NCBI GenBank assembly: GCA_963766195.1
Contig: CAVXYY010000018.1
Coordinates: 81,753 to 145,752, forward strand
DNA from: an uncultured Gammaproteobacteria bacterium
GTDB lineage: Bacteria > Pseudomonadota > Gammaproteobacteria > Xanthomonadales > SZUA-36
Reading direction: 5' to 3'
Length of the DNA: 64,000 bases
Below the pieces are notes generated by a model. That model saw nothing but the letters and a program-made list of their open reading frames with translations, had not been told where the DNA came from and ran no database searches. Position 1 is the first letter of the stretch. Every line of letters starts with the position of its first letter. Made by a program: the position numbers and the translations under genes. Of the stretch, positions 3,640-44,715 are shown piece after piece.

Positions 3640-6126
3640 TTGTACGTGGGTGATATTCAACAAGGGGCCAGGAAACAACTGGTTCAGAAATTTGGCGGGA
3701 CCTCGCTGGCCGACCTGGTGGGGTTCGAAGCCAGCGCGGACGTGATCGGTCGTTACACGGATCAGTACCAGGTCATCGTCCTGCTGTCCGCTGTCAAGGG
3801 CGTGACGGACCTGCTGCTGGCTGCGATCGACACGGCCGTCGAGGGCGGAGACGGCGCAGCGCACCTTGAAGAAGCGATTGACCGCGAGCGGTCCATTGTC
3901 AGGGACATGGCGGCTAAAGGTATCGCAACCCCGTTGGGTAGCGCCTTCCTGGAAGAACAACACGCCGTGCTCTCGCGCCGCGTCGAGGGTATCAGGCTAT
4001 TGGGCCAGTGCCCGGATGAAACCCGTGCCAGGATCCTGGCCAGTGGCGAAGGTTTCAGCAGCCGCCTGATGGTGGACCTGTTAAACCACCAGGGCTTCAA
4101 GGCGCAATGGTCGGACACCGACGTGCTGCCCCTGGCCAACGAAAGCTGGCTGGATTCCCTGGTCGATATCGAGGCCGCCGCCCCGTTGCTGAAGGAGCGG
4201 TTCGCTGCCGCCAGCCAGGTCATCGTGTTGCCCGGTTTCTATGGCCGCAATGCCCGCGGCGACATCCAGCTGCTCGGACGCAACGGCACCGATTATTCGG
4301 CCGCGGCGATCGCCGCCGCGATCGAAGCTGGCCTGTGCCAGATATGGAAGGACGTGGACGGCTTCTTTACCGCGGACCCGCGCATTGTCAGCAATGCCCG
4401 TTGCCTCGACGAAGTCAGTTACGACGAAGCCATGGAGCTGACCTATTTTGGCGCCAAGGTGATCTCGGCCAAGGCGCTGGCGCCGCTGGCAGCCAATAAC
4501 ATACCGTGCGAAGTGCGCAATACCTACGACCCGTCCAAGCCCGGAACCCTGGTGCACAGTGAAGCCAAACGGTCCCACGTGGTTCGCGGCATCTCCCACC
4601 TGCAGGACGTTTCTTCGATCACCCTGCAGGGTGGCGGACTGCGGGGCAGGGTAGGTATTGCACGCCGCGTAATGGATGCTTTGGCCAGCGAATCGATTTC
4701 CATCCTGTTGATCGTGCAATCGTCATCCGAATACAGCATCACTCTGTGCGTGCGCCAGGCGGACGAGGCAAAAGCGCGAAAAGCGCTCGAGGAGGAATTT
4801 CACTTCGAGCGCCTGCACGGGCTGATCGAAGAAATCGGCGTGCAGAGCAACCGGGCCGTGGTTTCACTGGTCGGTGAGGGCATGAAGCACTACCGCGGTA
4901 TTGCCGCCCGGTTCCTGACGGCTATTTCCTCGGCTGGCGTGAACGTGGAAGTCATCGCCCAGGGTTCAACCGAGTGCGCGATCGCGGTAGTGGTTCGCGG
5001 CGAGGACGCCCAACCGGCGACGCGTGCATGCCATACGGCATTTTTCAGCCATTCTTCGCACATCGATGTGATCCTCATGGGCTGCGGCAACGTCGGTGCG
5101 GAGCTTCTCGACCAGTTCCAACGCCAGGCCAAAACCCTGGTTGACCATCACGTGGATCTGCGTGTCAGGGCGATTGCCAACAGCGAACGGCTGCTGGTCG
5201 CCAGTGATGTCGTGGATCTTTCCTGCTGGAAACAGGCATTGGAAACACAGGGCCAGCCCTGGACCATCCAGGACGTCATCGATATCCGTAAAAAGCTCGG
5301 CCTGCTCAGCCCGACCATCGTCGATTGCACTACGGATCAGAAGCTTGCGCTCGAATACGTCAATCTGCTGGATAACGGGTTCAACATCGTTGCTGCGAAC
5401 AAGAAAGCAAATACTTCCAGTTATGACTATTACGCGGCCATGCGGCAGGCCGAGCGCCGCAACTTCCGCAAATTCCTTTACGAAACAAACGTGGCAGCGG
5501 GCCTGCCCTTCATCGATACCCTGCAGGGCCTGATCCGTTCGGGTGATGAGTTGAGAACGTTCGAGGGCATTCTGTCCGGCTCGCTGTCGATGATTTTCGG
5601 CTTGCTGGAAGACGGCGTACCGTTGTCTTCCGCGGTGGCGAAAGCGATGGAGCTGGGTTACACGGAACCGGACCCGCGTGACGACCTGTCCGGCATGGAT
5701 GTGGCCAGAAAGCTGTTGATCATCGCCCGTGAAGTCGGGTTGAAACTCGAACTCGATGACATCGCCGTGGAGCCGGTGGTACCGATGGAAGTTGTCGGTC
5801 ACGTAGACCGGTCACAGTTGATTGACACGTTGCGGTCGCTGGATGAATCTTTTTCAGCGCGGATTGCACAGGCAGCCGGTAGTGACCGGGTGCTGCGTTA
5901 TGTCGCGCGGCTGGAAGAGGGAAATTGCCGGGTGTCGATCGAGGAAGTTCCCCGCAGCAAGCCCCTCGGCGCCGTTCGTGATGGCGAAAATGCGCTGGTC
6001 ATTCACACGCATTATTACCAGCCGATTCCAATGGTGCTGAGAGGATACGGCGCCGGCGCGGCGGTCACGGCGGCAGGGGTTTTCGGCGATCTGCTGAGAA
6101 CCGTCTGGCGCCCCCTGGATCGCTGA
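3640..6126 (+). CDS. thrA: Bifunctional aspartokinase / homoserine dehydrogenase
   Basis: KFGGTSLA kinase N-terminus, ACT region and C-terminal homoserine dehydrogenase domain, about 825 aa. The ORF opens with TTG at 3640. GTG at 3646 has better spacing to GAGGGAG (3631-3637), so the true start may be 3646. Confidence 0.93.
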   Translation: MYVGDIQQGARKQLVQKFGGTSLADLVGFEASADVIGRYTDQYQVIVLLSAVKGVTDLLLAAIDTAVEGGDGAAHLEEAIDRERSIVRDMAAKGIATPLGSAFLEEQHAVLSRRVEGIRLLGQCPDETRARILASGEGFSSRLMVDLLNHQGFKAQWSDTDVLPLANESWLDSLVDIEAAAPLLKERFAAASQVIVLPGFYGRNARGDIQLLGRNGTDYSAAAIAAAIEAGLCQIWKDVDGFFTADPRIVSNARCLDEVSYDEAMELTYFGAKVISAKALAPLAANNIPCEVRNTYDPSKPGTLVHSEAKRSHVVRGISHLQDVSSITLQGGGLRGRVGIARRVMDALASESISILLIVQSSSEYSITLCVRQADEAKARKALEEEFHFERLHGLIEEIGVQSNRAVVSLVGEGMKHYRGIAARFLTAISSAGVNVEVIAQGSTECAIAVVVRGEDAQPATRACHTAFFSHSSHIDVILMGCGNVGAELLDQFQRQAKTLVDHHVDLRVRAIANSERLLVASDVVDLSCWKQALETQGQPWTIQDVIDIRKKLGLLSPTIVDCTTDQKLALEYVNLLDNGFNIVAANKKANTSSYDYYAAMRQAERRNFRKFLYETNVAAGLPFIDTLQGLIRSGDELRTFEGILSGSLSMIFGLLEDGVPLSSAVAKAMELGYTEPDPRDDLSGMDVARKLLIIAREVGLKLELDDIAVEPVVPMEVVGHVDRSQLIDTLRSLDESFSARIAQAAGSDRVLRYVARLEEGNCRVSIEEVPRSKPLGAVRDGENALVIHTHYYQPIPMVLRGYGAGAAVTAAGVFGDLLRTVWRPLDR

Positions 6127-7106: not shown

Positions 7107-8386
7107 TGCAATTGATCAACATCAAGCACAACAGCGAGCAAGTGAGCTTCCGGCAGGCCGTGCTGCAGGGCCTGGGGCGGGACCAGGGGTTGTTTTTCCC
7201 GCGGGAATTCACCGTGCTGCCTGATGCACCGGACCTGTTGCAGGAATCGTTTGTTCCCCGCAGCATCGCGGTCCTGGATCACCTGGTCGGTGATGAAATC
7301 GGTCACGCAGCGGTCCGGTCGATGGTTACTTCGGCGTTTGATTTTCCGGTGGCAGTGCCTGCGCTGGATGATCAGGTAAGTGCGCTGGAACTGTTTCACG
7401 GACCGTCACTGGCGTTCAAGGATTTTGGCGCCCGCTTCATGGCGCGCTGCCTGCTGGAGTTTCACGATGGCGGGCCGATGACGATTCTTACTGCCACCTC
7501 GGGTGATACCGGCGCGGCCGTCGCGCACGCTTTCTTCAACCAGCCGGGCATCCGCGTCGTCATTCTTTACCCCAGGGGGAAAATCTCGCCGCTGCAGGAA
7601 AAATTGTTCTGTACGCTGGGTGGGAATGTCACGACCATCGCGGTGGATTCGGATTTTGACACGTGCCAGCAACTGGTCAAGCGGTCCTTCGAAGACGAAG
7701 AACTCAAGCAGGACCTGGGACTCAATTCTGCCAACTCCATCAACATTGCCCGCCTGCTGGCCCAGGTTTGCTATTACTTCGAAGCAGGCGCCGCGGTGGC
7801 GGATGTTGGAAAAATGGTGCTCAGCGTGCCGAGTGGCAATTTCGGTAACGTCACGGCCGGCTTGATCGCCCGCCGGATCGGCCTCGGGTACAAACGGGTC
7901 ATCGCTGCAACCAACATCAACGATACGGTTCCCAGGTTCCTTGCCTCCGGCCGCTGGGACCCCAACCCCACCGTCGCCACGATCACCAATGCGATGGACG
8001 TTTCGCTGCCGAACAACTTCCCGCGCGTCCTGGAGCTTGGAGAGCGCCACGGACTGCCGCTGGAAACGCTGTTGTCATCGACCTCCCTGGATGATGACGA
8101 AACCGCCTCGGCAATCCGTGAACTGTATTCCATGGGTTACCTGGCTGACCCGCACTCGGCGCTGGCCTGGGCCGCCCTGGATGCTTCTTTGCAGGATGAC
8201 GAGGAAGGCGTTTTCCTGTGCACCGCTCACCCCGCCAAGTTTCTCGAAACCATGGAAGCAACGCTGGGAGTCCGGATCCCGATTCCACCGGAGTTAGCGG
8301 CGGTGCAGAATGAGGCGGTTTTGTCCAGCACCATCAGCGGGGATTTCGAGGCACTGAAACGGGAACTCGAACCGCTGCGGAAATAA
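7106..8386 (+). CDS. thrC: Threonine synthase
   Basis: The GTG start overlaps the thrB stop (TAGTG). Contains the PLP-lysine region PSLAFKDFG, is 426 aa long, and completes the thrABC order. Confidence 0.92.
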   Translation: MQLINIKHNSEQVSFRQAVLQGLGRDQGLFFPREFTVLPDAPDLLQESFVPRSIAVLDHLVGDEIGHAAVRSMVTSAFDFPVAVPALDDQVSALELFHGPSLAFKDFGARFMARCLLEFHDGGPMTILTATSGDTGAAVAHAFFNQPGIRVVILYPRGKISPLQEKLFCTLGGNVTTIAVDSDFDTCQQLVKRSFEDEELKQDLGLNSANSINIARLLAQVCYYFEAGAAVADVGKMVLSVPSGNFGNVTAGLIARRIGLGYKRVIAATNINDTVPRFLASGRWDPNPTVATITNAMDVSLPNNFPRVLELGERHGLPLETLLSSTSLDDDETASAIRELYSMGYLADPHSALAWAALDASLQDDEEGVFLCTAHPAKFLETMEATLGVRIPIPPELAAVQNEAVLSSTISGDFEALKRELEPLRK

Positions 8387-8418
8387 ACCCCGGTCGCAGC
8401 CATTTACGGGAGAGATCC

Positions 8419-10428
8419 ATGCGCCCTGTTCCATCCCCCAGGTTTGGCCCCGCCTTGCTGGTATCGACCTGGCTGGTTCTTTTTAGCGCCGGAGTATCGG
8501 CGGATGAGGTCCGCGCTTACGAATGGCTGACTGCTGGCAAGGTCTCCGGCCAGCTGGTTCTGACCTTGCGTGAAGATGGTGCCCGGTTATCCGATTTCGA
8601 ATTCAATGACCGCGGGCGCGGCCCGAAAATTCACGAACTGATCGAAACCGGTGAAAACGGCGCAGTAGTTTCGATGCAGATCAGTGGGAATTCCTACATG
8701 GGTGCGCCGGTGGATGAGCGTTTCCGCATTACGGACGGAATCGCGCGCTGGCAAAGTACCTTCGAAAAGGGCGAGGCGCCGGCGGGGCCGTTTTACTGGG
8801 CCAATGAAGGCACACCGGAACAACTGGCGCAGCTGGCACGCTCATTGCTGGCGTCGGACGCCGGGCAACAGGATCTGCTGCCGTCCGGCCATGCCTCCAT
8901 CCGGAAGGTCGCTGTACATGACAATGCCGTCCTCTATGCGATCTCCGGACTTGACCTGGTTCCTCAATATGTCTGGCTGGACCCGCAGGGTGAATTGTTC
9001 GCCATAGCCTTGGGCGGGATGGGCCTGGTGCGGCAAGGCTACCGGGAAATATTGCCCGATTTACAGCAGATCCAGGACGCGGAAGACAGGAACCGTCAAC
9101 GCGATCTGGCCCAATCCCTGACCCATGAATTGCCGGCCAACTGGATCATCCGCAACGTATCTGTCGTCGACGTTGAGAGCGGCACACTAAAGCCGCACCA
9201 GTTGGTTGCGGTGATTGACGGCCGGATTGCGCGCGTTGTCGATGACGAAGGGCTGGACTTGCCGGTTTACGGCGACCTGCAGCCGAAAATCATCGACGGC
9301 CAGGGTTTGACGCTGATTCCGGGCTTGTGGGATATGCACACCCATCTCACGATGGAAGACGGCTTGCTGCACATTGCCGCGGGCGTGACGAATGTGCGAG
9401 ACCTCGGCAATGATCCGCCCCGGCTGGTTGAAATCCGGGCCGCTTTCGATGCGGGCGAAGTTATCGGCCCGCGTTCGACGGCGGCAGGGTTTATCGACGG
9501 CAAAAGCCCTTACTCGGCGCCCACTCCCAACCTGGTGGAAAACCTGGAAGAGGCATTGGTCCTGGTCGATGAATTCGCTGCGGCGGGTGTTCCGCAGGTC
9601 AAGATCTATTCCTCTATGGATCCTGCCTGGGTGAAGCCGCTTGCGGACGAAATTCACCGCAAGGGCATGCGCCTTTCCGGCCACATCCCCTCGTACATGA
9701 GCGCTCAACAGGCGGTGACCGACGGCTTCGACGAGATTCAACATGTCAATATGCTGTTTCTGAATTTCCTGGCCGGTCCGGAAGACGATACCCGCACACC
9801 ACTCAGGTTCACGCTGGTGGCTGAAAATGCCGGCGGCATGGATCTTGATTCACCCCGGGTACAGGAGTTCATCGCCCTGTTGAAGGACCGGGGCGTCGTC
9901 GTTGATCCCACGGTTGCGGTTTTCGACAGCATGTTCCGTCACCGTTCAGGAGAACTTGATCCTTCGTACGCCATGATCGCAGACCATATGCCGCCCTCGG
10001 TCAGGCGCGGCATGCTGGCCGGCGAACTGGACATCAGCGACGCCAACGCTGCCGTCTACACCCGCTCGGCTGATGCCCTGCTGGAAATGATCGCGAAACT
10101 GCACGCCGCCGGTGTGCCGCTGGTCGCGGGCACGGATGGAATGGCGGGTTTTACGCTGCACCGTGAACTTGAGCTGTACCGCCAGGCTGGAATTCCTGAT
10201 GGCGACGTGCTGAAGATCGCCACGCTTGACGCCGCCGGGGTCGCTCGGAGGGCGGCAGACAGCGGGTCAATCAGCGCCGGCAAGGAGGCTGATTTCGTGT
10301 TGTTGGCCGGTAACCCGCTCGAAGACATCACCGCTGTCCGGAGGCCGGTTGCGGTGTTCAAAGGGGATCGTTGGTTCGATCCTGCACAGATTTACGAGGC
10401 GCTGGGTATTCGGCCGTTTACCCGCTGA
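8419..10428 (+). CDS. Exported amidohydrolase-family metallohydrolase with an extra ~270-aa N-terminal domain
   Basis: Signal-peptide-like N-terminus (LLVSTWLVLFSAGVSADE) and the metal-binding motif PGLWDMHTHL. The C-terminal GTDG...GKEADFVLL pattern fits the amidohydrolase superfamily. GGGAGAG RBS. Confidence 0.75.
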   Translation: MRPVPSPRFGPALLVSTWLVLFSAGVSADEVRAYEWLTAGKVSGQLVLTLREDGARLSDFEFNDRGRGPKIHELIETGENGAVVSMQISGNSYMGAPVDERFRITDGIARWQSTFEKGEAPAGPFYWANEGTPEQLAQLARSLLASDAGQQDLLPSGHASIRKVAVHDNAVLYAISGLDLVPQYVWLDPQGELFAIALGGMGLVRQGYREILPDLQQIQDAEDRNRQRDLAQSLTHELPANWIIRNVSVVDVESGTLKPHQLVAVIDGRIARVVDDEGLDLPVYGDLQPKIIDGQGLTLIPGLWDMHTHLTMEDGLLHIAAGVTNVRDLGNDPPRLVEIRAAFDAGEVIGPRSTAAGFIDGKSPYSAPTPNLVENLEEALVLVDEFAAAGVPQVKIYSSMDPAWVKPLADEIHRKGMRLSGHIPSYMSAQQAVTDGFDEIQHVNMLFLNFLAGPEDDTRTPLRFTLVAENAGGMDLDSPRVQEFIALLKDRGVVVDPTVAVFDSMFRHRSGELDPSYAMIADHMPPSVRRGMLAGELDISDANAAVYTRSADALLEMIAKLHAAGVPLVAGTDGMAGFTLHRELELYRQAGIPDGDVLKIATLDAAGVARRAADSGSISAGKEADFVLLAGNPLEDITAVRRPVAVFKGDRWFDPAQIYEALGIRPFTR

Positions 10429-15704: not shown

Positions 15705-15719
15705 AAGCGGAACGAACGC

Positions 15720-15779
15720 GGAGCGGCCCATGGCCGCGATTCTTCAGAGAAACCAGCATTCGCGGCCATGGGCCGCTCC
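15720..15779. repeat. Inverted pair of REP-like elements (GGAGCGGCCCATGGCCGCGAT)
   Basis: GGAGCGGCCCATGGCCGCGAT at 15720-15740 has its reverse complement at 15759-15779. The pair lies between the convergent ACT gene and ppk2. The same unit recurs at 17535 and 37533, with a variant at 43716. Confidence 0.75.
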
Positions 15780-15789
15780 AACAATGCGG

Positions 15790-17464: not shown

Positions 17465-17534
17465 CCTTTTGAATCAATACGTTCGCGTCAGTACATTATT
17501 ATAGTACTGACTGAAACATATATCAATGACTGTT

Positions 17535-17620
17535 GGAGCGGCCCATGGCCGCGATTGGTTTTGTAAGAGCGGATGGAAAGGAGCAGGCCGAGCCGGCGAT
17601 TTCGCGACCATGGGTCGCTT
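17535..17620. repeat. REP-like element plus a diverged inverted partner
   Basis: GGAGCGGCCCATGGCCGCGAT lies at 17535-17555. A diverged inverted copy (TCGCGACCATGGGTCGC) lies at about 17601-17617, and its two substitutions are complementary, so the palindrome is kept. Confidence 0.65.
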
Positions 17621-36872: not shown

Positions 36873-37493
36873 ATGAAGAAAGGGCTGATGGCTTTGGCTT
36901 TTGGAACGCTTGCAATTGTGGCTGAAAGACTTCCTGCAATTGAGGAAGCAGAGTACCTGGTCGTTCAGAAATCCGGGGATATCGAGCTGCGTGATTACTC
37001 GCCATCCATCGTGGCTGAAACGCTGGTCAAGGATGATTTTGAAGACGCCGGCAGCAAGGCGTTCAAAAAATTGTTCAAGTACATCTCAGGTGCAAACACG
37101 GCGCAGGACAAAATTGCGATGACCTCGCCGGTGGCACAGGAAAAACGCCCGGAAAAAATCGCAATGACCTCACCTGTCGGCCAGCGGGCGGCAACAGAGG
37201 GTTGGGCGGTGAGTTTCATGATGCCAGCGAGCTACACAATGGACACGATCCCCAGCCCAACAGACCCGCAGGTTGTGATCCGTGAAATTCCGGCCTATCG
37301 CGCGGCTGTTATTCAGTACTCGGGTCGCTGGACCGAAAAAAATTTCCAGGAACACCTCGCGCTTCTCCAGGACTGGATGGTGAAAAGTGAGATACGGGCA
37401 GCCGGAGAGCCGGTATGGGCCCGATACGATCCACCCTTCAAGCCTTGGTTCATGCGGCGCAACGAAATCCTGATTCCCGTTCAACAGCAGTGA
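36873..37493 (+). CDS. SOUL/HEBP-family haem-binding-like protein (exported)
   Basis: Signal peptide. YEVR-like start (EYLVVQKSGDIELRDY), FKKLFKYISGAN and a duplicated KIAMTSPV motif, with the C-terminal NEILIPV typical of SOUL proteins. Confidence 0.8.
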   Translation: MKKGLMALAFGTLAIVAERLPAIEEAEYLVVQKSGDIELRDYSPSIVAETLVKDDFEDAGSKAFKKLFKYISGANTAQDKIAMTSPVAQEKRPEKIAMTSPVGQRAATEGWAVSFMMPASYTMDTIPSPTDPQVVIREIPAYRAAVIQYSGRWTEKNFQEHLALLQDWMVKSEIRAAGEPVWARYDPPFKPWFMRRNEILIPVQQQ

Positions 37494-37532
37494 GACTCTG
37501 AAGCAGGCGCCGGCCTTGGTGGAGCGCCTGTA

Positions 37533-37553
37533 GGAGCGGCCCATGGCCGCGAT
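37533..37553 (+). repeat. REP-like element
   Basis: CCTGTA-GGAGCGGCCCATGGCCGCGAT lies 40 nt after the SOUL-gene stop and is identical to the units at 15720 and 17535. Confidence 0.7.
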
Positions 37554-37781
37554 TGAGAACTCCAAACCCGGTAAGAAACCGGGTGTCTGTCGGCGGGACA
37601 AGCGCGAGACTCCCTGGCCGCTTTTCAGCTGTTCCGGACAGCTAAAAGTCCCGACAACGGCCCCCGGTCAGTCACCTGTTCTTGTTGCCGCCGGTCAACA
37701 TTGCGCTCTATTTACAATATAGCGGACTTGTGACAATCTACTCGCGCGTTGGGCCCTGCGGCCCGGTCGAGGTTATCGGCG

Positions 37782-38033
37782 ATGCAAATCAAATTGGCGG
37801 TTTCCGTTCGCGGGCATCGGTTTTTTGGTGCCTTGGCGGGAATGCTTGCCTTGTTTTCCCTGGTCCCCTCACCCATTTTTGCCTCCGCAAAATCACCGGC
37901 TGACACCGTCCATCTGGTTCCCCCAAAAGCCAGACATCTCAGCGCTTCCCGGGGTATGTTCGAAACCGAATTTGAATACTCGTACGGCGCTGATTTGGCC
38001 GCCGGTAATTTCACCCCCGAGTTCCCCCACTGA
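37782..38033 (+). CDS. Possible 83-aa exported protein, or the N-terminal remnant of an outer-membrane protein
   Basis: ATG 9 nt after GAGG. Signal-peptide-like FFGALAGMLALFSLVPSPIFASA, ending in ...FETEFEYSYGADLAAGNFTPEFPH. There is no family match, and an antisense ORF of similar size exists. Confidence 0.25.
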   Translation: MQIKLAVSVRGHRFFGALAGMLALFSLVPSPIFASAKSPADTVHLVPPKARHLSASRGMFETEFEYSYGADLAAGNFTPEFPH

Positions 38034-38190
38034 TTGAACGCTGAATTTCTCGTCGCTGCCAGGCAGACGGCGTTACACCCATCCCGGCGACGACAGATCG
38101 AAACCGCGCCTTGTTCGGCGCGCCACCCTGACGGAACACCGCGTTTGCGTTCCGATCGAGGCCACCCCCTGACCGCTTGAGGATAAGTTC

Positions 38191-38853
38191 ATGAAGTTTC
38201 ATACGTTTGGCCAGACTACCCTGTTCACGATTTGCCTGACCCTGATCGGCCTTGCACCTCACCCGGCGCAAGCGCAGCCCGCTTCATCAGTTGCCTACTC
38301 GGCGGACTTCGTATTCGAAACTGCTGACATGGCGCAAACCGGCCGGATCTACGTGTCTGCGGGGAAGGAGCGGCGGGAGGCCCTGATGGAGGGAATCACC
38401 ATGATCACCATCCGCCGCGAGGACCTGGGCAAGACCTGGATGCTCATGCCCGATGAACAGATGTACATGGAATTCGGTCACGGCCAGAAAAACCCCTCCG
38501 GCATGACGGCCGACAACCCTGCCGATTATGACGTGCAGATGACTGAGGTGGGCCCCGAAGTACTGGACGGCCTGGAAACCATCAAGCAAAAAGTCATCAT
38601 GACCGCCAAGGACGGCAGCAAGATGGGTGGTTTCTGGTGGACGACCCCCGAGGGAATCACGATCAAGATGGATATGCTCGCCGTTGATGAAGGGGAAAAG
38701 ATGCGCCTCAAACAAGTGTTGAGCAACGTGGTGATTGGCGAACCCGAACCCGCCCTGTTCGAGATCCCGGCCGGCTACGAAAACATGATGATGGGCATGG
38801 GTATGGGCATGGGTATGGCGATGCAGATGCCCGGCCTGCCGAAGCGCAACTGA
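38191..38853 (+). CDS. Exported protein of unknown function with a C-terminal Met/Gly-rich tail
   Basis: Signal peptide (LFTICLTLIGLAPHPAQA). A beta-rich body, possibly LolA/DUF4412-like, which is a guess. Tail MMMGMGMGMGMAMQMPG. Confidence 0.7.
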   Translation: MKFHTFGQTTLFTICLTLIGLAPHPAQAQPASSVAYSADFVFETADMAQTGRIYVSAGKERREALMEGITMITIRREDLGKTWMLMPDEQMYMEFGHGQKNPSGMTADNPADYDVQMTEVGPEVLDGLETIKQKVIMTAKDGSKMGGFWWTTPEGITIKMDMLAVDEGEKMRLKQVLSNVVIGEPEPALFEIPAGYENMMMGMGMGMGMAMQMPGLPKRN

Positions 38854-38862
38854 GGCGGTAGC

Positions 38863-39762
38863 GTGATGCACAAGATGAGATTACCCCTGGCGCTCGGCCT
38901 GGCGCTGCTGGCCGCGACCCCGTTGTGGGCCGATGATGTTTGTTCACCTGAAGAACGCCGCGCTGGCGATGCCGCGTTGTCGCGCGCCCAGGCGGCTGAA
39001 AACTCGGGTGACCTGGTAACCGCGTTGAAACTGGCGAACAGTTACGAAGTAAAGGGCTGCGGCGATCAAAAGACCTCAGAAGCCCTGGTGCGGCGTGTCA
39101 ACGAGAAACTGGGCCGGAAGGCCGAGGCGGATGGTGACCTGAAAGCGGCATTCAACTACTTCAATGCGGGCGGCTTTCCCGATGACGCGCGCCGGGTCGG
39201 CCTCAAGCAGCTGGCCGCTGCGCCCGGAAATTTCCAGCTTTCTTCCGACCTGATGTCGTTCATGCAGGAAAACGGCTTTGCTGAAGGTGTTGCGGCAGTG
39301 CGTGAGAACGCGCGGCAGCAGGCTCAGGAGCTCTTGTCCGAGGAAGAGCGCACTTTTGCAGTACGGAATCCGCAAAAGGATCTGCTGGAGAAAGCGCAAA
39401 AATGGCTGCAGCTGGCCGGCGAGCCGGTGGCGCCGGTCGAAGCACGGGCCTTGCAGCGCGCGGATGGCTACCTGGCGCTGGACTACGCGTTTGCCTTGCA
39501 GCAGGCGATGGAGTACTACGAGCTTGCCGGTCGTGCAGACAAAATCGAAGCAGTGCGTGCCAAGGCGCGCCGGCTGGCCGATCAACTGGCCGGGGGTGAA
39601 AACTGGGCGGCCGCAGTCGAGCTGTACCAGATCGCGGGCGATTCGGAGCGGGCAGACGAATTGGTTGTCCGGCGCGAAGCCAGCGCGGCTGAAACGGAAG
39701 CAGCGCGCAAGGAGGAGTTCCAGAAGGAACAGGACGACCTGGAAAAGGAACTCGATTTTTAG
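38863..39762 (+). CDS. Exported alpha-helical repeat protein of unknown function
   Basis: Signal peptide (LPLALGLALLAATPLWA). Three x-Y-x-x-AG repeat motifs (FNYFNAGG, MEYYELAGR, VELYQIAGD) and an acidic coiled-coil C-terminus. The start is GTG 38863 or ATG 38866. Confidence 0.7.
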   Translation: MMHKMRLPLALGLALLAATPLWADDVCSPEERRAGDAALSRAQAAENSGDLVTALKLANSYEVKGCGDQKTSEALVRRVNEKLGRKAEADGDLKAAFNYFNAGGFPDDARRVGLKQLAAAPGNFQLSSDLMSFMQENGFAEGVAAVRENARQQAQELLSEEERTFAVRNPQKDLLEKAQKWLQLAGEPVAPVEARALQRADGYLALDYAFALQQAMEYYELAGRADKIEAVRAKARRLADQLAGGENWAAAVELYQIAGDSERADELVVRREASAAETEAARKEEFQKEQDDLEKELDF

Positions 39763-39873
39763 GCAAAGCACCGCCGTGTATTCCCCCGATTGCCCGGCGA
39801 ACACCGAGCATGAAAAAGCCAACCTGGCTTCGAGCCGGCGTTTTGGCAATTGTTGTAACCCGAGGATTTCAAA

Positions 39874-40530
39874 ATGAATTTCAGACTTTATGTTCCGAAC
39901 CGTTTCAGCCCAGCTATCGTGCTGCTGGCCGCCATCACCCTTCTGCCGTTGCAGGCTGCCGCAGACGACAAGGTGCCAGCCTCATTAGCTGCCCTGTTGC
40001 CCGCAGGGGCTGAGCTCACGTCCCAATCCTGGGGTGTTGACGAAGATGAAGAATTCGGAGACAGCTTCAATGGGGGCATGTACGCGGACTTTCCCGGCAA
40101 ATATCCATCCTGTTCCTGGAGCCTGTACAAGTCGAGGATAACGGTCGAAATCCAAGGCCGAAAGTTGGATAAAAACACATTTTGGCTGGAGAATGCCGCT
40201 GAAACCTATGAATCCGATTACGAAGCTTCTGGCCAATCGATGGCCGAAGACCTGGCCAGGTCATACAAAAACAATGACACTTTGAAGTCCATGGGCGCCG
40301 TGCAGGAAGAGCAGTTTCTCAGCGGCCGTATTGCCTATATCGAATGGACTGAAGACTGCGACCGACATCCCAACGGCACGAAAGCCAAGCTCAAGGGGAG
40401 CGCCCTCCGAGACGCCACCATCCTGACTTTTAACCTGGAGCTGAGCGCAACAGCTGCCGAGGCGCGCACGATGGCGCTCGAGATTCTCAGCAAGTTCGAG
40501 CAACTGGATATCAACGCGCTCTTCGAGTAA
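39874..40530 (+). CDS. Exported protein of unknown function
   Basis: Signal peptide (AIVLLAAITLLPLQAAA), 218 aa, no recognisable motif. Same strand and codon usage as its neighbours. Confidence 0.65.
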   Translation: MNFRLYVPNRFSPAIVLLAAITLLPLQAAADDKVPASLAALLPAGAELTSQSWGVDEDEEFGDSFNGGMYADFPGKYPSCSWSLYKSRITVEIQGRKLDKNTFWLENAAETYESDYEASGQSMAEDLARSYKNNDTLKSMGAVQEEQFLSGRIAYIEWTEDCDRHPNGTKAKLKGSALRDATILTFNLELSATAAEARTMALEILSKFEQLDINALFE

Positions 40531-40583
40531 CTACCGCCCGGCAAACGACCGCGATTCCCTTTGCCACATTGGACTGGTGCACC

Positions 40584-42725
40584 ATGAATAGCAAAATCAT
40601 AGCTGGCCCAAAACTGTTATCCGGCCTGGCATTAACCCTGGTGCTCACCGCCGGCTCTGCGACGGGAGCTGCAGACGAGACAGGAACGTTTTCCGGCACG
40701 GTGAAATTCAGCTCCACTCCCAGGACGGGCGAGGAGGGGATGGGGTTCACCATCACCGACGGCACTGCCACCGTGACCTGGACCCTGGTGGAAGAGTTAC
40801 CGGATGTGCGCACCTACACCGCCAGCGGCACCATCAGCGGCGGGCTGGCCCCGGAAATTGAATACGGTAACTGCAAGCCGGTGCCGGTAACGGGCGCGAT
40901 TGCCTCCGGGGACAAGCTCGTCGTTTACACCGAGCGAGCCAACTGGAATCCGGCCACTTACGCTTTCGCTCTCATGCTGGCCGATAACAACACCCCACTG
41001 ACCACCACTTGCACAGACGAAGATGGCGACGAATTTCCGGTAACTTTCCCGAACACCCTCATGGTATCTGTGGGCCACAATTGCCTGCCTGACCTGACAC
41101 CCAGGCCCGTTCCGTTCACTGATCCGGAAGTCCTGGAAGGCACCTTTGACTGCCCCGGCAACAATTTTTTTACCGGCATCAGTGCAAAGTGGAGCTTCAC
41201 CGGAAAGCTCGGGGATGTGATTCTCGAAATCACCCCCTCCGGGGGCTATAAAAAGTGGCGCCCGAGTGCCGATAGGGACGGCGGCGATGGTGAACCGGTG
41301 GAATTCACCGCCACGCTCAAGACCAAGGATGGTGGCGTGCCGGAACAGCGCATCAAGGAGCTGGAATGGGAGTTGATGGAAACTTCCGCCGAGCCGGGCT
41401 TCACCATCAACTGGCCCCAGGTACCCGATAAAAACGAGCCTGATTTGTATTTCAAAGACCAGCCTGCAACCACTCCAGGTGCGGTCCGCAGGGCGGTAGG
41501 CGAAACGGGACAGAAGGTTATCGTCACGTACTCTGACGACGGCAAGCTGAGCGACAGCATCGCCGTCCATCCGCGTGACTGGGGTGGCTGGAGCACACTG
41601 CAGGTGACTGCCGTGCTGAACGATGACCGGCGGGTCAGCGGCCGCCTGGCCGGTGCCTCGGAAGACGGGGTGCGCCTGCCCGACCGCGACCCGGGGCGCT
41701 ACATCGCGCGCTCCTGGCTCAGCGATAAGGGGATCAGCGATGGTGACCGTTCCGACCTGGAAGACCAGCCGAAGGGGGATTCGAACAAGGGGGATGGCCT
41801 GACCCTGTACGAGGAATACCGCGGCTTCTATGTCAACGGTGAACGGGTCGAGGGCGATCCCAAGCTCAAGGAGATGTTCATCGTGAACGAAGGCGAGGAA
41901 CCCGGTTCAGCCGGGACAGCGAACGGCGTCGCCGGGATCGCGCTTTTCCAGAAGCTCACCGGCCTGAAGGTGCACGGAACCTTCAAACGCGAGGAGATGG
42001 ACGCAGACCGGGTGGTGAACCACAACGCCAGCGCCAGAACCCCCCGGCTCGGGCCACAGCACGCGGTGCTGATCAAGGTCGATCCGGAGCTGGCGGGGCA
42101 AGCCAATGCGTTTACGCCCGATGATCGCCCGAAAACACCCGGCGGCGTCAAGTACGTGGGCCTGCCCATAGACATCCTCTCGCGTCCAACCATGAACCCT
42201 GGGGTCAGCTACGCCGCCATCACGGTGGCTCACGAACTGCTGCACGCGGTTAACGTTTACCACCATGGAGAGGGCGATGAGGTGGTGTCCTGGTCGCACG
42301 ACGCCGAAGGCAGATTGTTCGAGCAGAACACAGAAGAGCAGAAGGATGGCACCTATAAACTGGTCGGTAAACGTATTGAGATCCGAGCATTCCTGGAATC
42401 CGGCCAAGACGTCACCGCCAATGCCGATCCCGGTCTCCGCTTTCTCGGCCAGCGGCGTGGTCAGCACTCCGGGCATGAAAACTGCGTGATGCGCTACGAC
42501 CTTGCCCGTGCCTCGGTTTCAATCGCAAACCCCACCAGTTACCGCTATGTCTTCGGGGACACCAAGGATATGCAGGGCACCGGTCTGGACGATACTGCTC
42601 AAGGCACCGATTTCAATAAATTGGAAAGGGAACCACAATCGCGCTATGGGATGGCTGCACGGGGCCGGGGTAATTGCAAGGGCCAGATACTGGTCAACGA
42701 CATGGTTCCACCACCCGCGCGTTAA
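40584..42725 (+). CDS. Exported 713-aa protein with a C-terminal metzincin-like zinc-protease signature
   Basis: ATG at 40584 gives the signal peptide MNSKIIAGPKLLSGLALTLVLTAGSATGA. The N-terminal half is Cys-containing and beta-rich. HELLHAVNVYH lies at nt 42231-42263 and CVMRY at nt 42483-42497. Confidence 0.75.
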   Translation: MNSKIIAGPKLLSGLALTLVLTAGSATGAADETGTFSGTVKFSSTPRTGEEGMGFTITDGTATVTWTLVEELPDVRTYTASGTISGGLAPEIEYGNCKPVPVTGAIASGDKLVVYTERANWNPATYAFALMLADNNTPLTTTCTDEDGDEFPVTFPNTLMVSVGHNCLPDLTPRPVPFTDPEVLEGTFDCPGNNFFTGISAKWSFTGKLGDVILEITPSGGYKKWRPSADRDGGDGEPVEFTATLKTKDGGVPEQRIKELEWELMETSAEPGFTINWPQVPDKNEPDLYFKDQPATTPGAVRRAVGETGQKVIVTYSDDGKLSDSIAVHPRDWGGWSTLQVTAVLNDDRRVSGRLAGASEDGVRLPDRDPGRYIARSWLSDKGISDGDRSDLEDQPKGDSNKGDGLTLYEEYRGFYVNGERVEGDPKLKEMFIVNEGEEPGSAGTANGVAGIALFQKLTGLKVHGTFKREEMDADRVVNHNASARTPRLGPQHAVLIKVDPELAGQANAFTPDDRPKTPGGVKYVGLPIDILSRPTMNPGVSYAAITVAHELLHAVNVYHHGEGDEVVSWSHDAEGRLFEQNTEEQKDGTYKLVGKRIEIRAFLESGQDVTANADPGLRFLGQRRGQHSGHENCVMRYDLARASVSIANPTSYRYVFGDTKDMQGTGLDDTAQGTDFNKLEREPQSRYGMAARGRGNCKGQILVNDMVPPPAR

Positions 42726-42745
42726 TATCACAGGAGACCCTATCC

Positions 42746-43621
42746 ATGCTGCGACGTTACCTGGCCCAGATGCAGATTCCGCTGATCGTTTTGCTGCTGT
42801 TGGCAGCCTGCGGTGATGAACAGGCGCCCGTGGTCGTGACGACACCCGGGGCCGCCCCGTCTCCCGCTGCCGAAACTGCCGTAGCAGCAGACTTGGCAGA
42901 CACGCCCAACGCGCCATTCAGCCTGACCGTCTACGCCACTCTGGGCGCGGAACCCGTCATTCACCGGGGTGAGCCGTTGCTGGTCGAAGCGCTGCTGATC
43001 CTGACCGGGGACGAACCCACCCGGATCGCCCTGGCGGACGGCGCGCCGTGGACCCGCGCACTGTCGTTGACGCTCACGGACGGCAATGGAAAAGCGGTGG
43101 CGGCCGCATGGTCCGGCCTGGAGCAGGCCGGAACCGATCTGGAGTTCAGCGCTGACGCCATCGAAATCCGGGCTGTCGCGGCCTTGTCGCCCGGGGCGCT
43201 TGATGCCCTTGCGCCGGGTGACTACCGCCTGACTGCCGTCTTCGATACCCGGGACAGCGCCGCCACTGGCGCCTGGGCGGGTCGTCTGTCCGCCCCTGGC
43301 GCGCCAATCACGATCAGCGGCTCTGCGCGGGGAAGTAGCGAAGACGAGCAGATTTTCAGCCGGCGCTTGCTGGCCCGCTGGCAACAGCTGGACAACCAGC
43401 CGCAGGCCGCACTCGAAACACTGGACGCCGCGCTGCAACTATCGCCCGGGGATATCGGCACGATGTCGGACAAGGCGGAGGTGCTGGTCGAACTGCAGCG
43501 CAATGACGAGGCCATTGAACTGCTGCAGCAAGCCATCGCACAGTATGGTCAGCGCTACCCGAACGACAACCACCCGCCCCGCGAGTTGATTCATCGCCTG
43601 AATGAATTAAGCCCGTACTGA
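42746..43621 (+). CDS. Lipoprotein with C-terminal TPR-like repeats, function unknown
   Basis: AGGAG lies 9 nt before the ATG at 42746. Lipobox LLLLAAC. The C-terminal helical repeats read ...ALETLDAALQLSPGDIGTMSDKAEVLVELQRNDEAIELLQQAI. Confidence 0.7.
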   Translation: MLRRYLAQMQIPLIVLLLLAACGDEQAPVVVTTPGAAPSPAAETAVAADLADTPNAPFSLTVYATLGAEPVIHRGEPLLVEALLILTGDEPTRIALADGAPWTRALSLTLTDGNGKAVAAAWSGLEQAGTDLEFSADAIEIRAVAALSPGALDALAPGDYRLTAVFDTRDSAATGAWAGRLSAPGAPITISGSARGSSEDEQIFSRRLLARWQQLDNQPQAALETLDAALQLSPGDIGTMSDKAEVLVELQRNDEAIELLQQAIAQYGQRYPNDNHPPRELIHRLNELSPY

Positions 43622-43715
43622 ACGCCGGTAGGGACGTACCCGTTAAACTTGTGACCTGGCGCGCAATTTCTTAAGCGCGGATTACGTTCATGCCACAATC
43701 GAAATGCGAACCGGA

Positions 43716-43741
43716 ATCGCGGATAAATCCGCTCCTACAGG
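43716..43741 (-). repeat. REP-like element, loop variant
   Basis: The minus strand reads CCTGTAGGAGCGGATTTATCCGCGAT. The flanks match the other copies (CCTGTAGGAGCGG...CCGCGAT) but the central loop differs. It sits directly after the yqjG stop. Confidence 0.6.
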
Positions 43742-43743
43742 GG

Positions 43744-44715
43744 TCAACCCCGTCCGTGAGGCGCCCACAGGTCCAGCTTCGGGCCGGCCGGCACCACGCC
43801 GGTGGGGTTGATCATCGTATGGCTCACATAGTAGTGGTGCTTTATATGCTTCATGTCGATGGTTTCCGCCACGCCCTCGTGCTGGTAGAGGTCGCGGGTA
43901 TAGGCCCACAGGTTGGGGTAGTCTGAGAGCCGGCGGATGTTGCACTTGAAATGCCCTACGTAAACGGGATCGAAACGGATCAGTGTCGTGAACAAACGCC
44001 AGTCAGCTTCCGTCAGGCGGTCGCCAAACAGGTAACGTTTCGACGCGAGTCGGTGCTCCAGCCAGTCCAGGGTTTCAAACAGCGGTTCCACTGCTTCTTC
44101 GTAGGCCTCCTGGGACGTTGCGAAACCGGCCTTGTAAACGCCGTTGTTCACACAGCTGTAAATGCGTGAATTGATTTCATCGATCTGGTGGTGCAGGTCT
44201 TGCGGGTAGTAATCCCCCGGGGTTGCGCCGATGTCGTCGAATGCGCTGTTGAACATGCGGATGATTTCCGATGACTCGTTGGAAACAACCGTTCCTTCCT
44301 GTTTGTCCCACAAAACCGGAACGGTCACCCTGCCTGAATAGTCGGCATCCGCATGGGTATATACCTGGTGCATATATTGGGCGTTGAACAACGGGTCCGG
44401 AATCACGCCGTCGCCGTGCTGGAACGTCCAGCCGTGTTCGGCCATGTGCCAATGCACTACCGACAGGCTGATCATTTCCTCCAGGCCTTTGAGGTGGCGG
44501 AAGATCAGCGTCCGGTTAGCCCACGGGCAAGCCAGTGATACATAGAGGTGGTAGCGGTTCGGCTCTGCCTTGAAGCCGCCCCGGCCGCTGGGGCCGGGGC
44601 TGCCATCAGCAGTAACCCAGTTGCGAAACTTCGCGGCGCTGCGTACAAAGTGGCCCTTGTGGCCCTCGGTGTCATACCACTGGTCGACCCATTGGCCTTT
44701 AATCAAAAGTCCCAT
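43744..44715 (-). CDS. yqjG: Glutathionyl-hydroquinone reductase (Xi-class GST, YqjG/ECM4-like)
   Basis: RYHLYVSLACPWANRTLI carries the CPWA active site. Length 323 aa, with the C-terminal GST fold FDPVYVGHFKCN. Confidence 0.9.
   Translation of the reverse strand: MGLLIKGQWVDQWYDTEGHKGHFVRSAAKFRNWVTADGSPGPSGRGGFKAEPNRYHLYVSLACPWANRTLIFRHLKGLEEMISLSVVHWHMAEHGWTFQHGDGVIPDPLFNAQYMHQVYTHADADYSGRVTVPVLWDKQEGTVVSNESSEIIRMFNSAFDDIGATPGDYYPQDLHHQIDEINSRIYSCVNNGVYKAGFATSQEAYEEAVEPLFETLDWLEHRLASKRYLFGDRLTEADWRLFTTLIRFDPVYVGHFKCNIRRLSDYPNLWAYTRDLYQHEGVAETIDMKHIKHHYYVSHTMINPTGVVPAGPKLDLWAPHGRG

Follow-up and report, generated by a model that had tools for sequence, protein, structure and literature searches.

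A family of metzincin-like putative proteases and its exported partner in a block of exported-protein genes from an uncultured gammaproteobacterium

In E. coli, NlpI-Prc and BepA combine a periplasmic protease with a tetratricopeptide repeat (TPR) module that docks at the outer membrane and presents substrates. NlpI is a separate TPR lipoprotein of about 290 aa, and nlpI and prc are not adjacent genes, whereas the TPR of BepA is a fused domain. AprI/Inh are inhibitors of serralysins, and periplasmic immunity proteins protect against exported bacteriolytic enzymes. The KLIKK peptidases of Tannerella forsythia, which include the matrix metalloproteinase (MMP)-like karilysin, are encoded next to, and co-transcribed with, potempin lipoproteins with which they form stable complexes; potempins are beta-barrels of 98-132 aa that are encoded upstream of the peptidase (PMC9890683). 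A metzincin/TIMP-like lipoprotein pair from Listeria has also been reported (PMC8235301). Here, we analyze a stretch of 64,000 nucleotides from an uncultured Gammaproteobacteria bacterium (contig CAVXYY010000018.1, positions 81,753 to 145,752; hereafter the window), which contains a block of five genes for exported proteins, G1 to G5. From its motifs and modelled fold, we place G4 among the metzincin-like peptidases as a distant member without a name, and the conserved unit across phyla is the pair of G4 and G5:

40584-42725, plus strand: G4, secreted metzincin-like putative zinc endopeptidase of 713 aa, unnamed family (homologs and structural model)
42746-43621, plus strand: G5, lipoprotein of 291 aa and partner of G4; no other neighbour family is conserved with it

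As in the KLIKK/potempin systems, a secreted peptidase gene is located beside a lipoprotein gene in the same orientation, here with a gap of 20 nt and a LAAC lipobox in G5, and karilysin is the best structural match to G4. Unlike the potempins, G5 has a length of 291 aa, comprises a beta-rich domain (G5N) and TPR repeats and is encoded downstream of the peptidase, and the acidobacterial partner is not a lipoprotein. G4 also differs from the KLIKK peptidases in that it has no type IX secretion C-terminal domain. Like NlpI, G5 is a lipoprotein by its lipobox with TPR repeats that score above the Pfam cutoffs, and split as well as fused forms occur both in NlpI-Prc/BepA and in the G4-G5 family. 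In contrast to G4, Prc and BepA are of the catalytic types S41 and M48, and the nlpI and prc genes are apart; unlike NlpI and BepA, G5 has a short TPR stretch (~70 residues) and a novel beta domain as its conserved part. The G4-G5 pairing resembles protease-inhibitor lipoprotein pairs as well as TPR-adaptor proteases and is a member of neither.

The G4 family of putative proteases

No match to G4 as a single sequence was obtained in Pfam, NCBIfam or the sequences of the PDB, and searches with a profile of 54 sequences as well as with the single sequence gave nothing significant, the best hit being a snake-venom metalloproteinase around HExxH (E 2.3). In a collection of 5.8 billion proteins, 63 homologs were identified, none of which has a Pfam domain in the part it shares with G4; those with a name are all annotated as "hypothetical protein". 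A pattern scan of species-representative genomes recovered 169 matching stretches that encode relatives of G4, and the family is present in at least 169 species genomes. Most of these relatives are from Acidobacteriota (Bryobacterales and others), Verrucomicrobiota (Opitutaceae and others), Planctomycetota and Myxococcota, and a few are from Gammaproteobacteria. The genome of the window is not part of this set, in which the closest G4 protein is 67% identical. The family is present in multiple copies in soil Acidobacteria and Verrucomicrobia, and a literature search retrieved no paper describing it. For most homologs, the alignment is limited to the C-terminal ~70% of the protein, and signal-peptide-like N-termini were seen in 47/54 family members. 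One homolog with 35% identity was located in a Thermoplasmata archaeon metagenome-assembled genome (MAG; L048, DATEUK010000170) with no G5N nearby, and could be due to horizontal transfer or a binning error.

Conservation was assessed in an alignment of the 54 family members, in which three segments stand out:

41790-41828, plus strand: motif GDGLTLYEEYRGF (GDG...LYEEYRGF), with G403, D404, G405, E411, Y412, R413 and G414 all conserved in 54/54 sequences
42231-42269, plus strand: candidate zinc-binding motif HELLHAVNVYHHG, from conservation in the 54 sequences
42483-42497, plus strand: candidate Met-turn CVMRY, with C634 in 53/54, M636 in 52/54, R637 in 51/54 and Y638 in 53/54 sequences

The zinc motif of the family is near-invariant, HExxHxx[N/G]xxHHG, with H550, H561 and G562 present in 54/54 members, H554 in 53/54, E551 in 52/54 and H560 in 47/54, such that either H560 or H561 may be the third zinc ligand. 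C698 is also among the invariant or near-invariant positions. The spacing of H550, E551, H554 and H560 is that of the metzincin consensus HEXXHXXGXXH, which has three His ligands and a catalytic Glu. Since the catalytic residues are so strongly conserved, G4 is probably enzymatically active. The putative catalytic Glu (E551) is replaced by Arg in two family members and the second zinc His (H554) by Arg in one, and these proteins may be inactive pseudo-proteases.

As in the metzincins (M10 MMPs and karilysin, M12B adamalysins, fragilysin), the HExxH helix of G4 is accompanied by a further His six residues on and by a Met about 75 residues downstream. This Met (M636), the candidate Met-turn residue, lies 75 residues past the zinc motif within CxMRY, which resembles the SxMHY/SxMSY Met-turns of astacins and serralysins. 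The predicted order of strands and helices and the best structural matches are also shared with the metzincins. Unlike the metzincins, G4 has no sequence match in Pfam, NCBIfam or PDB, and it does have an extra invariant His-Gly after the third His, a beta insertion of ~70 residues between the zinc site and CxMRY, and the invariant GDG...LYEEYRGF segment and a conserved beta-sandwich upstream. Also, the signature Gly (position 557) is Asn in 29, Gly in 19 and another residue in 6 of the 54 sequences. Sub-threshold Pfam matches to Reprolysin_2/3/4/5, Peptidase_M57 and M66 recur across the 54 members, with best scores for Peptidase_M57 (E 8.5e-4) and Reprolysin_5 (E 0.031), while the curated Pfam and NCBIfam peptidase thresholds (M10, M12, M57, M66 and others) were not reached by G4 or by any of the 54 members. 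Because the family falls below every curated threshold and deviates at the Gly position, G4 is best seen as a new family-level variant in a known clan rather than as a member of M10 or M12.

An AlphaFold2 (AF2) model of the full-length protein, made with the family alignment, had a predicted local distance difference test score (pLDDT) of 84.5. Four parts were distinguished in it: the signal peptide, an N-terminal beta domain of low confidence (35-207) and, both modelled with confidence, a beta-sandwich (210-365) and the C-terminal domain. The domains were assigned as follows:

40677-41198, plus strand: beta-rich domain at the N-terminus, aa 32-205, swapped as compared to other family members
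41211-41678, plus strand: conserved beta-sandwich, aa 210-365 (pLDDT >90; conserved W225, P227 and G272)
41679-42722, plus strand: predicted catalytic domain, aa 366-713 (AF2 pLDDT 93; predicted template modelling score, pTM, 0.92)

With the full-length model, Foldseek retrieved only immunoglobulin (Ig)-like, YcnI and adhesin domains; since these beta domains masked the catalytic domain, aa 366-713 were then modelled alone. The best match in PDB to this domain was the karilysin-potempin A complex (8b2q; prob 0.99, E 4e-3, template modelling score ~0.4-0.45), followed by MMP-1/3/8/9/12/13, ADAM33, fragilysin and archaemetzincin, over ~146 aligned columns. About 30 of the top matches were catalytic domains of MMP, ADAM or fragilysin proteins (prob 0.9-0.99), and the top structural match among viral proteins in BFVD was also an MMP. 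The predicted order of elements is a strand, a long helix, four strands and the HExxH helix, which is the order of the metzincin upper subdomain. The model is consistent with a metzincin catalytic-domain fold, in which a sheet of five strands and the active-site helix are followed by a lower subdomain, with weak structural scores, and the motifs, the catalytic-domain model and the MMP matches together bear out an earlier proposal, made from the DNA letters alone (the sequence-only reading), that the fourth gene is metzincin-like.

The N-terminal domain (aa 32-205) is a Cys-containing beta domain that is missing from most family members. An Ig-like-domain protein from Gallionella (P0056) has a C-terminal domain with 50% identity to it, which suggests domain shuffling.

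The G5 lipoprotein and its linkage to G4

The G5 protein contains three recognizable parts, of which G5N is a new domain:

42800-42811, plus strand: lipobox LAAC (Cys22), from the translation
42821-43360, plus strand: G5N, new beta-rich domain of ~180 aa, from an iterated hidden Markov model (HMM)
43364-43576, plus strand: TPR repeats of ~70 residues (TPR_12, 36.3 bits, cutoff 30.1; TPR_19, 35.1, cutoff 25)

Comparison of G5N with Pfam and PDB identified no family, only chance-level or faint hints of Ig-like, invasin and macroglobulin domains, and the few conserved residues of its core look structural. Close homologs of G5 are annotated solely as TPR proteins, and longer homologs add a PF25900 (PAPPA) module.

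We surveyed the flanks of the first 86 loci that carry G4 homologs with an iterated HMM built on G5N. The domain was found in 69/86 loci, in every case on the same strand as G4, and a six-frame search added three loci (L012, L021 and L060), which brings the count to 72/86. Sixty-six of the G5N copies are located downstream of G4 and 7 upstream, and the downstream copies mostly begin at most tens of bases after the G4 stop codon, with gaps between the open reading frames (ORFs) of -3 to +30 nt. All-against-all clustering of the neighbour ORFs in the 86 loci identified G5 as the sole widely shared family (68 loci). The next cluster contained ORFs from 14 loci on the opposite strand, which are probably overlapping ORFs rather than genes. 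G4 contexts that were fetched singly agree with the pairing of G4 and G5. Most of the other loci without G5N are truncated contigs, and no G5N was found inside the 63 G4 homologs (P0001-P0063).

In one of the loci added by the six-frame search, from a Planctomycetia MAG (L060, SXIK01000094, 818-3646), a single ORF of 942 aa runs from G4 through G5N and a TPR-like region to a dockerin-like tail at the C-terminus. The joint between G4 and G5N is a linker rich in Gly, Ala and Gln with no internal signal peptide, and to judge from the sequence we take this ORF to be a genuine G4-G5 fusion and not simple read-through. The suggestion of the sequence-only reading that the protease has a partner is upheld for the TPR lipoprotein G5, with conserved adjacency in 72/86 loci and one fusion.

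The G5 family is exported throughout, with a lipobox in orthologs from Proteobacteria, myxobacteria and several other lineages and a signal peptide of the signal peptidase I type in those from Acidobacteria. In several phyla, the orthologs have a short TPR segment after G5N. The C-terminal extensions vary within the family and include TPR, Big_3_5, He_PIG/ASH Ig-like domains and the dockerin-like tail, such that G5N alone is constant. At another locus (L002), G4 is preceded by a gene for an exported beta-propeller protein of the pyrroloquinoline quinone (PQQ) type.

Proposed organization of the block and rival explanations

We consider it somewhat probable that the block is composite, with a G4-G5 core in which G5 has a docking and regulatory role, G3 as an accessory of the clade, and G1-G2 as an independent pair. 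In such a block, G4 would be a Sec-exported zinc endopeptidase in which a conserved beta-sandwich and a catalytic domain follow a variable beta domain at the N-terminus, and G5 would be its dedicated, co-expressed partner. The conserved adjacency and the one fusion suggest that G5N binds G4, while the variable rest of G5 (a lipid anchor and TPR repeats in the window, Ig-like repeats or a dockerin-like tail elsewhere) would fix the complex at the envelope and engage other proteins, thereby setting its location and contacts. As such, G5 would not be a pure inhibitor but a tether or adaptor that at the same time governs the timing of protease activity. G3 would be a clade-specific accessory beside the core, and G1-G2 would adjoin the cluster in this lineage and be dispensable to it. 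To the tether or regulator role of G5 as such we give nearly even credence; it is preferred over a pure inhibitor because of the modular extensions of localization type and the fusion in L060.

It is less likely, although by no means far-fetched, that G5 is a tight-binding cognate inhibitor or immunity protein that silences the protease in the periplasm or on the surface of the producer, in which case G4 would be a secreted protease for attack or nutrient acquisition. This reading has the best precedents, in adjacent pairs of metzincins and lipoprotein inhibitors (PMC9890683; PMC8235301), and the G4 and G5 genes are tightly coupled in a 1:1 ratio. The pairs of serralysins and Inh are another precedent. 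An inhibitor would also fit with the beta-rich core of the partner and its few conserved, structural-looking residues, with a protease that has no conserved recognizable propeptide and an N-terminal domain that is swapped between clades, and with the multiple copies of the G4 family in soil Acidobacteria and Verrucomicrobia. However, the partner (170 aa plus extensions of up to 780 aa) exceeds the known small inhibitors in size and carries binding and localization modules, and its gene is located downstream, the opposite of the potempin arrangement. Moreover, G5N has no similarity to known inhibitor families, and the fused protein in L060 would be permanently inhibited unless processed.

The sequence-only reading had instead grouped all five genes of the block, the first three of which are:

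38191-38853, plus strand: G1, exported DUF4412-family protein of 220 aa with a Met/Gly-rich tail (71 homologs)
38863-39762, plus strand: G2, exported protein of ~300 aa, putatively helical according to the sequence-only reading, partner of G1 (the gene caller starts at ATG 38866)
39874-40530, plus strand: G3, exported protein of 218 aa with two invariant Cys, a clade-restricted accessory gene

All five plus-strand ORFs were confirmed, and a metagenome contig from JGI that represents a close strain (L087; G4 98.5% identical) gave the same five gene calls of 220/298/218/713/291 aa. That these genes encode one dedicated envelope or extracellular machine, with the protease and four cognate accessory proteins, is very unlikely. 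The genes do share one strand, short gaps and exported products, G1-G2 also precede G3-G4 in L088, where the genomic surroundings differ, and the DNA homology to the nearest relative (L001) spans exactly the region between two repeat elements in the window. Yet the proposal fails on gene co-occurrence, since G5 alone is conserved with G4 across the 86 loci: no G1 or G2 homolog is located beside G4 in any of these loci, G1-G2 stand alone in L089 and L090, and relatives with 53-67% identity to the window G4 have no G3. In L001, G3-G5 are intact and G1-G2 are gone, with a junction of the deletion type. In mechanistic terms, no tie of G3 or G1-G2 to the protease was found other than their being neighbours in two or three related genomes. 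Five consecutive genes for exported proteins are also not rare as such: if ~20% of the proteins are exported, we estimate that chance alone yields about one run of this kind per genome.

TPR lipoproteins are often chaperones or pilotins, and the lipase-specific foldases (lipA-lif) provide a model for a steric chaperone or export helper that assists the folding or secretion of its enzyme without being part of the working enzyme. Such a role for G5 is very improbable: its gene is downstream and tightly coupled as in lipA-lif, but TPR repeats are not universal among the partners, some of which have ~250 aa and little beyond G5N while others have Ig-like C-terminal domains, and the stable L060 fusion suggests a lasting association.

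Several observations speak against the composite block with a G4-G5 core as described above. The window G4 has Asn at the signature Gly position of the metzincins, and the Foldseek scores of its catalytic domain are weak (E >=4e-3, TM-score, i.e., template modelling score, 0.38-0.45). About 7 amply flanked G4 loci have no detectable G5N (L017, L019, L035, L043, L048, L053 and L070), and the known adjacent metzincin/lipoprotein pairs are protease-inhibitor pairs (PMC9890683; PMC8235301), which favours an inhibitor. Finally, the second occurrence of G1-G2 upstream of G3-G4, in L088, points to a possible looser functional link between them.

It is possible, although we hold this with some doubt, that G4 and G5 constitute an undescribed, phylum-spanning, two-component extracytoplasmic protease system in which G5N is a built-in latency or targeting subunit. 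If so, the pair would represent a split, sometimes fused, counterpart of the BepA and NlpI-Prc type of envelope proteolysis, or a new class of metzincin protein inhibitor. It is widespread in Acidobacteriota, Verrucomicrobiota, Planctomycetota and Myxococcota, which have hardly been studied for such systems. It would add to the metzincin clan a family with the unusual zinc-site variant HExxHxx[N/G]xxHHG and the invariant GDG...LYEEYRGF segment, as well as a partner domain, G5N, whose near-obligatory linkage and one natural fusion predict a physical complex with G4. G4 homologs are frequent in phyla of soil and sediment that are difficult to cultivate, and if their function were defined, hundreds of genes for "hypothetical proteins" could be annotated; this could also reveal an inhibitor scaffold for MMP-like enzymes, or an envelope protease for quality control or degradation. 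The theme of a secreted protease with a cognate exported partner is already well known, and what is new here is the G4 family and the G5N domain. The apparent five-gene system of the window is a nested assembly with a readable deletion history.

Upstream genes, flanks and history of the locus

Most of the 71 homologs of G1 (41-74% identity) carry PF14371 (DUF4412), to which the window G1 scores 20.8 bits (cutoff 21.6). By transitivity, G1 is a member of DUF4412, with which it also shares size and exported location, and the earlier statement that no gene but the fourth belongs to a nameable family does not hold. A literature search returned no paper mentioning DUF4412. G1 ends in a Met/Gly-rich tail, MMMGMGMGMGMAMQM (38788-38853); in many of its homologs, the sequence goes on instead with a run of acidic residues and the conserved motif KKKGFGLG-LKDALD, which is missing in the window G1. 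A copper-binding role for the tail was considered and rejected, since the tail shows little conservation and at least 5 Met are present in only 6/71 homologs. For G2, we identified 82 representative relatives or clusters of ~300 aa with no named family, and G1, G2 and G3 had no matches in PDB.

In all three other contexts examined (L088, L089 and L090), a G1 homolog is followed by a G2 homolog, with 50-61% identity. In L089 and L090, the pair is found without G3-G5 nearby, and G1-G2 is therefore a separate two-gene module. To our knowledge, this type of pairing of a DUF4412 protein with a ~300-aa protein (4/4 contexts) has not been described before. In L088, where G4 is 69% identical and cut by the contig end, the order is G1-G2-[two genes]-G3-G4, which supports G1-G2 as ancestral upstream neighbours. 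The two genes between G2 and G3 (7632-9820) encode paralogous exported proteins of ~350 aa with a faint, sub-threshold hint of NHL repeats.

G3 has no match in Pfam, and its homologs are confined to three closely related loci, L001 (with two copies), L087 and L088; two metagenome scans for relatives of G3 recovered none. In the nearest relative, L001 (G4 76% identical), the gene order is G3'-G3-G4-G5, where G3' encodes a 233-aa paralog that is 35% identical to G3. Traces of G3' and of its upstream region are present in the window:

37692-37781, plus strand: conserved upstream non-coding segment of ~90 nt (82% nucleotide identity to L001 2836-2925, just upstream of G3')
37782-38033, plus strand: relic of a G3 paralog, 83 codons (tblastn with L001 G3')

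The first 75 aa of the relic, including the signal peptide, are 63% identical to L001 G3' (E 7e-25), and the last ~11 residues, including GNFTPEFP, are joined in frame, with ~145 codons missing; the relic was also called as an ORF by the gene caller on L087. The stretch in front of G1 had been reported as ~700 nt of non-coding DNA. Its length is right (697 nt), but it is not wholly non-coding, and the relic explains much of the unusual length. The conserved segment upstream of the relic may represent a promoter or leader that belonged to the ancestral cluster, and no sigma-70 consensus in it scored above shuffled sequences.

DNA homology between the window and L001 is confined to 37692-43630 (82-85%) and ends 9 nt past the G5 stop codon, and the genes that flank the cluster are unrelated in the two genomes, which indicates that the cluster is a discrete unit with different surroundings in each. 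At the 5' end of the L001 G3 gene (3781-3830), ~12 codons resemble the start of the window G1 (38191-38226) and the sequence then continues as the window G3 (39921 onward). The switch lies inside the signal-peptide region and has generated a chimeric signal peptide. The simplest reading of this junction is a deletion in the L001 lineage that would have removed the equivalent of ~38227-39920, that is, the body of G1, G2 and the 5' end of G3, the alternative being the reverse event, an insertion by recombination. With both readings, G3-G4-G5 persist in the absence of G1-G2. The locus appears from these comparisons to be a composite with a history of duplication, decay and deletion.

The gaps between the five genes, previously given as 9-110 nt, were measured at 9, 111, 53 and 20 nt from G1 to G5 and are indeed small. 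Boxes of the Shine-Dalgarno type (GAGG/AGGAG) precede G1, G2, G3 and G5 but not clearly G4. Export signals were read by eye from the translations, each of which has a signal peptide or lipobox, as had been claimed. All five products start with a basic n-region, followed by a hydrophobic core of 10-15 residues and an AxA-type site; the signal peptides of G1 to G4 are:

G1: MKFHTFGQTTLFTICLTLIGLAPHPAQA, cleavage before Q
G2: MMHKMRLPLALGLALLAATPLWA, cleavage before D
G3: ends in ...AIVLLAAITLLPLQAAA, cleavage before D
G4: MNSKIIAGPKLLSGLALTLVLTAGSATGA, cleavage before A

No homology was detected in internal comparisons of the five proteins, and none of them matched a defence component in PADLOC. 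Promoter and terminator scans of the block gave results no better than shuffled sequence, and an Rfam scan of 37300-44000 gave only a sub-threshold JUMPstart match. The neighbours had been described as ordinary cytoplasmic genes. The left-hand gene (36873-37493), which encodes a product of the SOUL heme-binding family, begins with a signal-peptide-like MKKGLMALAFGTLAIVA..., and the left neighbour is thus not clearly cytoplasmic.

Repetitive extragenic palindromic (REP)-like elements were found, as the sequence-only reading had noted, outside both ends of the cluster:

37530-37553, plus strand: REP-like palindrome left of the cluster, exact match to GTAGGAGCGG-N7-CCGCGAT
43716-43738, minus strand: REP-like palindrome right of the cluster, variant with a 6-nt loop, exact match to GTAGGAGCGG-N6-CCGCGAT

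The pattern has 6 matches, as compared to 0.29 expected. The idea that these elements represent the specific ends of a mobile element was rejected, as they are generic repeats and none is located at the cluster limits in L001. Further copies of the GTAGGAGCGGCCCATGGCCGCGAT type, including an inverted pair, are located at 15717-15782 (15717 and 15759) and 17532-17555, and it is this recurrence at 15717, 15759 and 17532 that identifies the REP-like element as a generic repeat.

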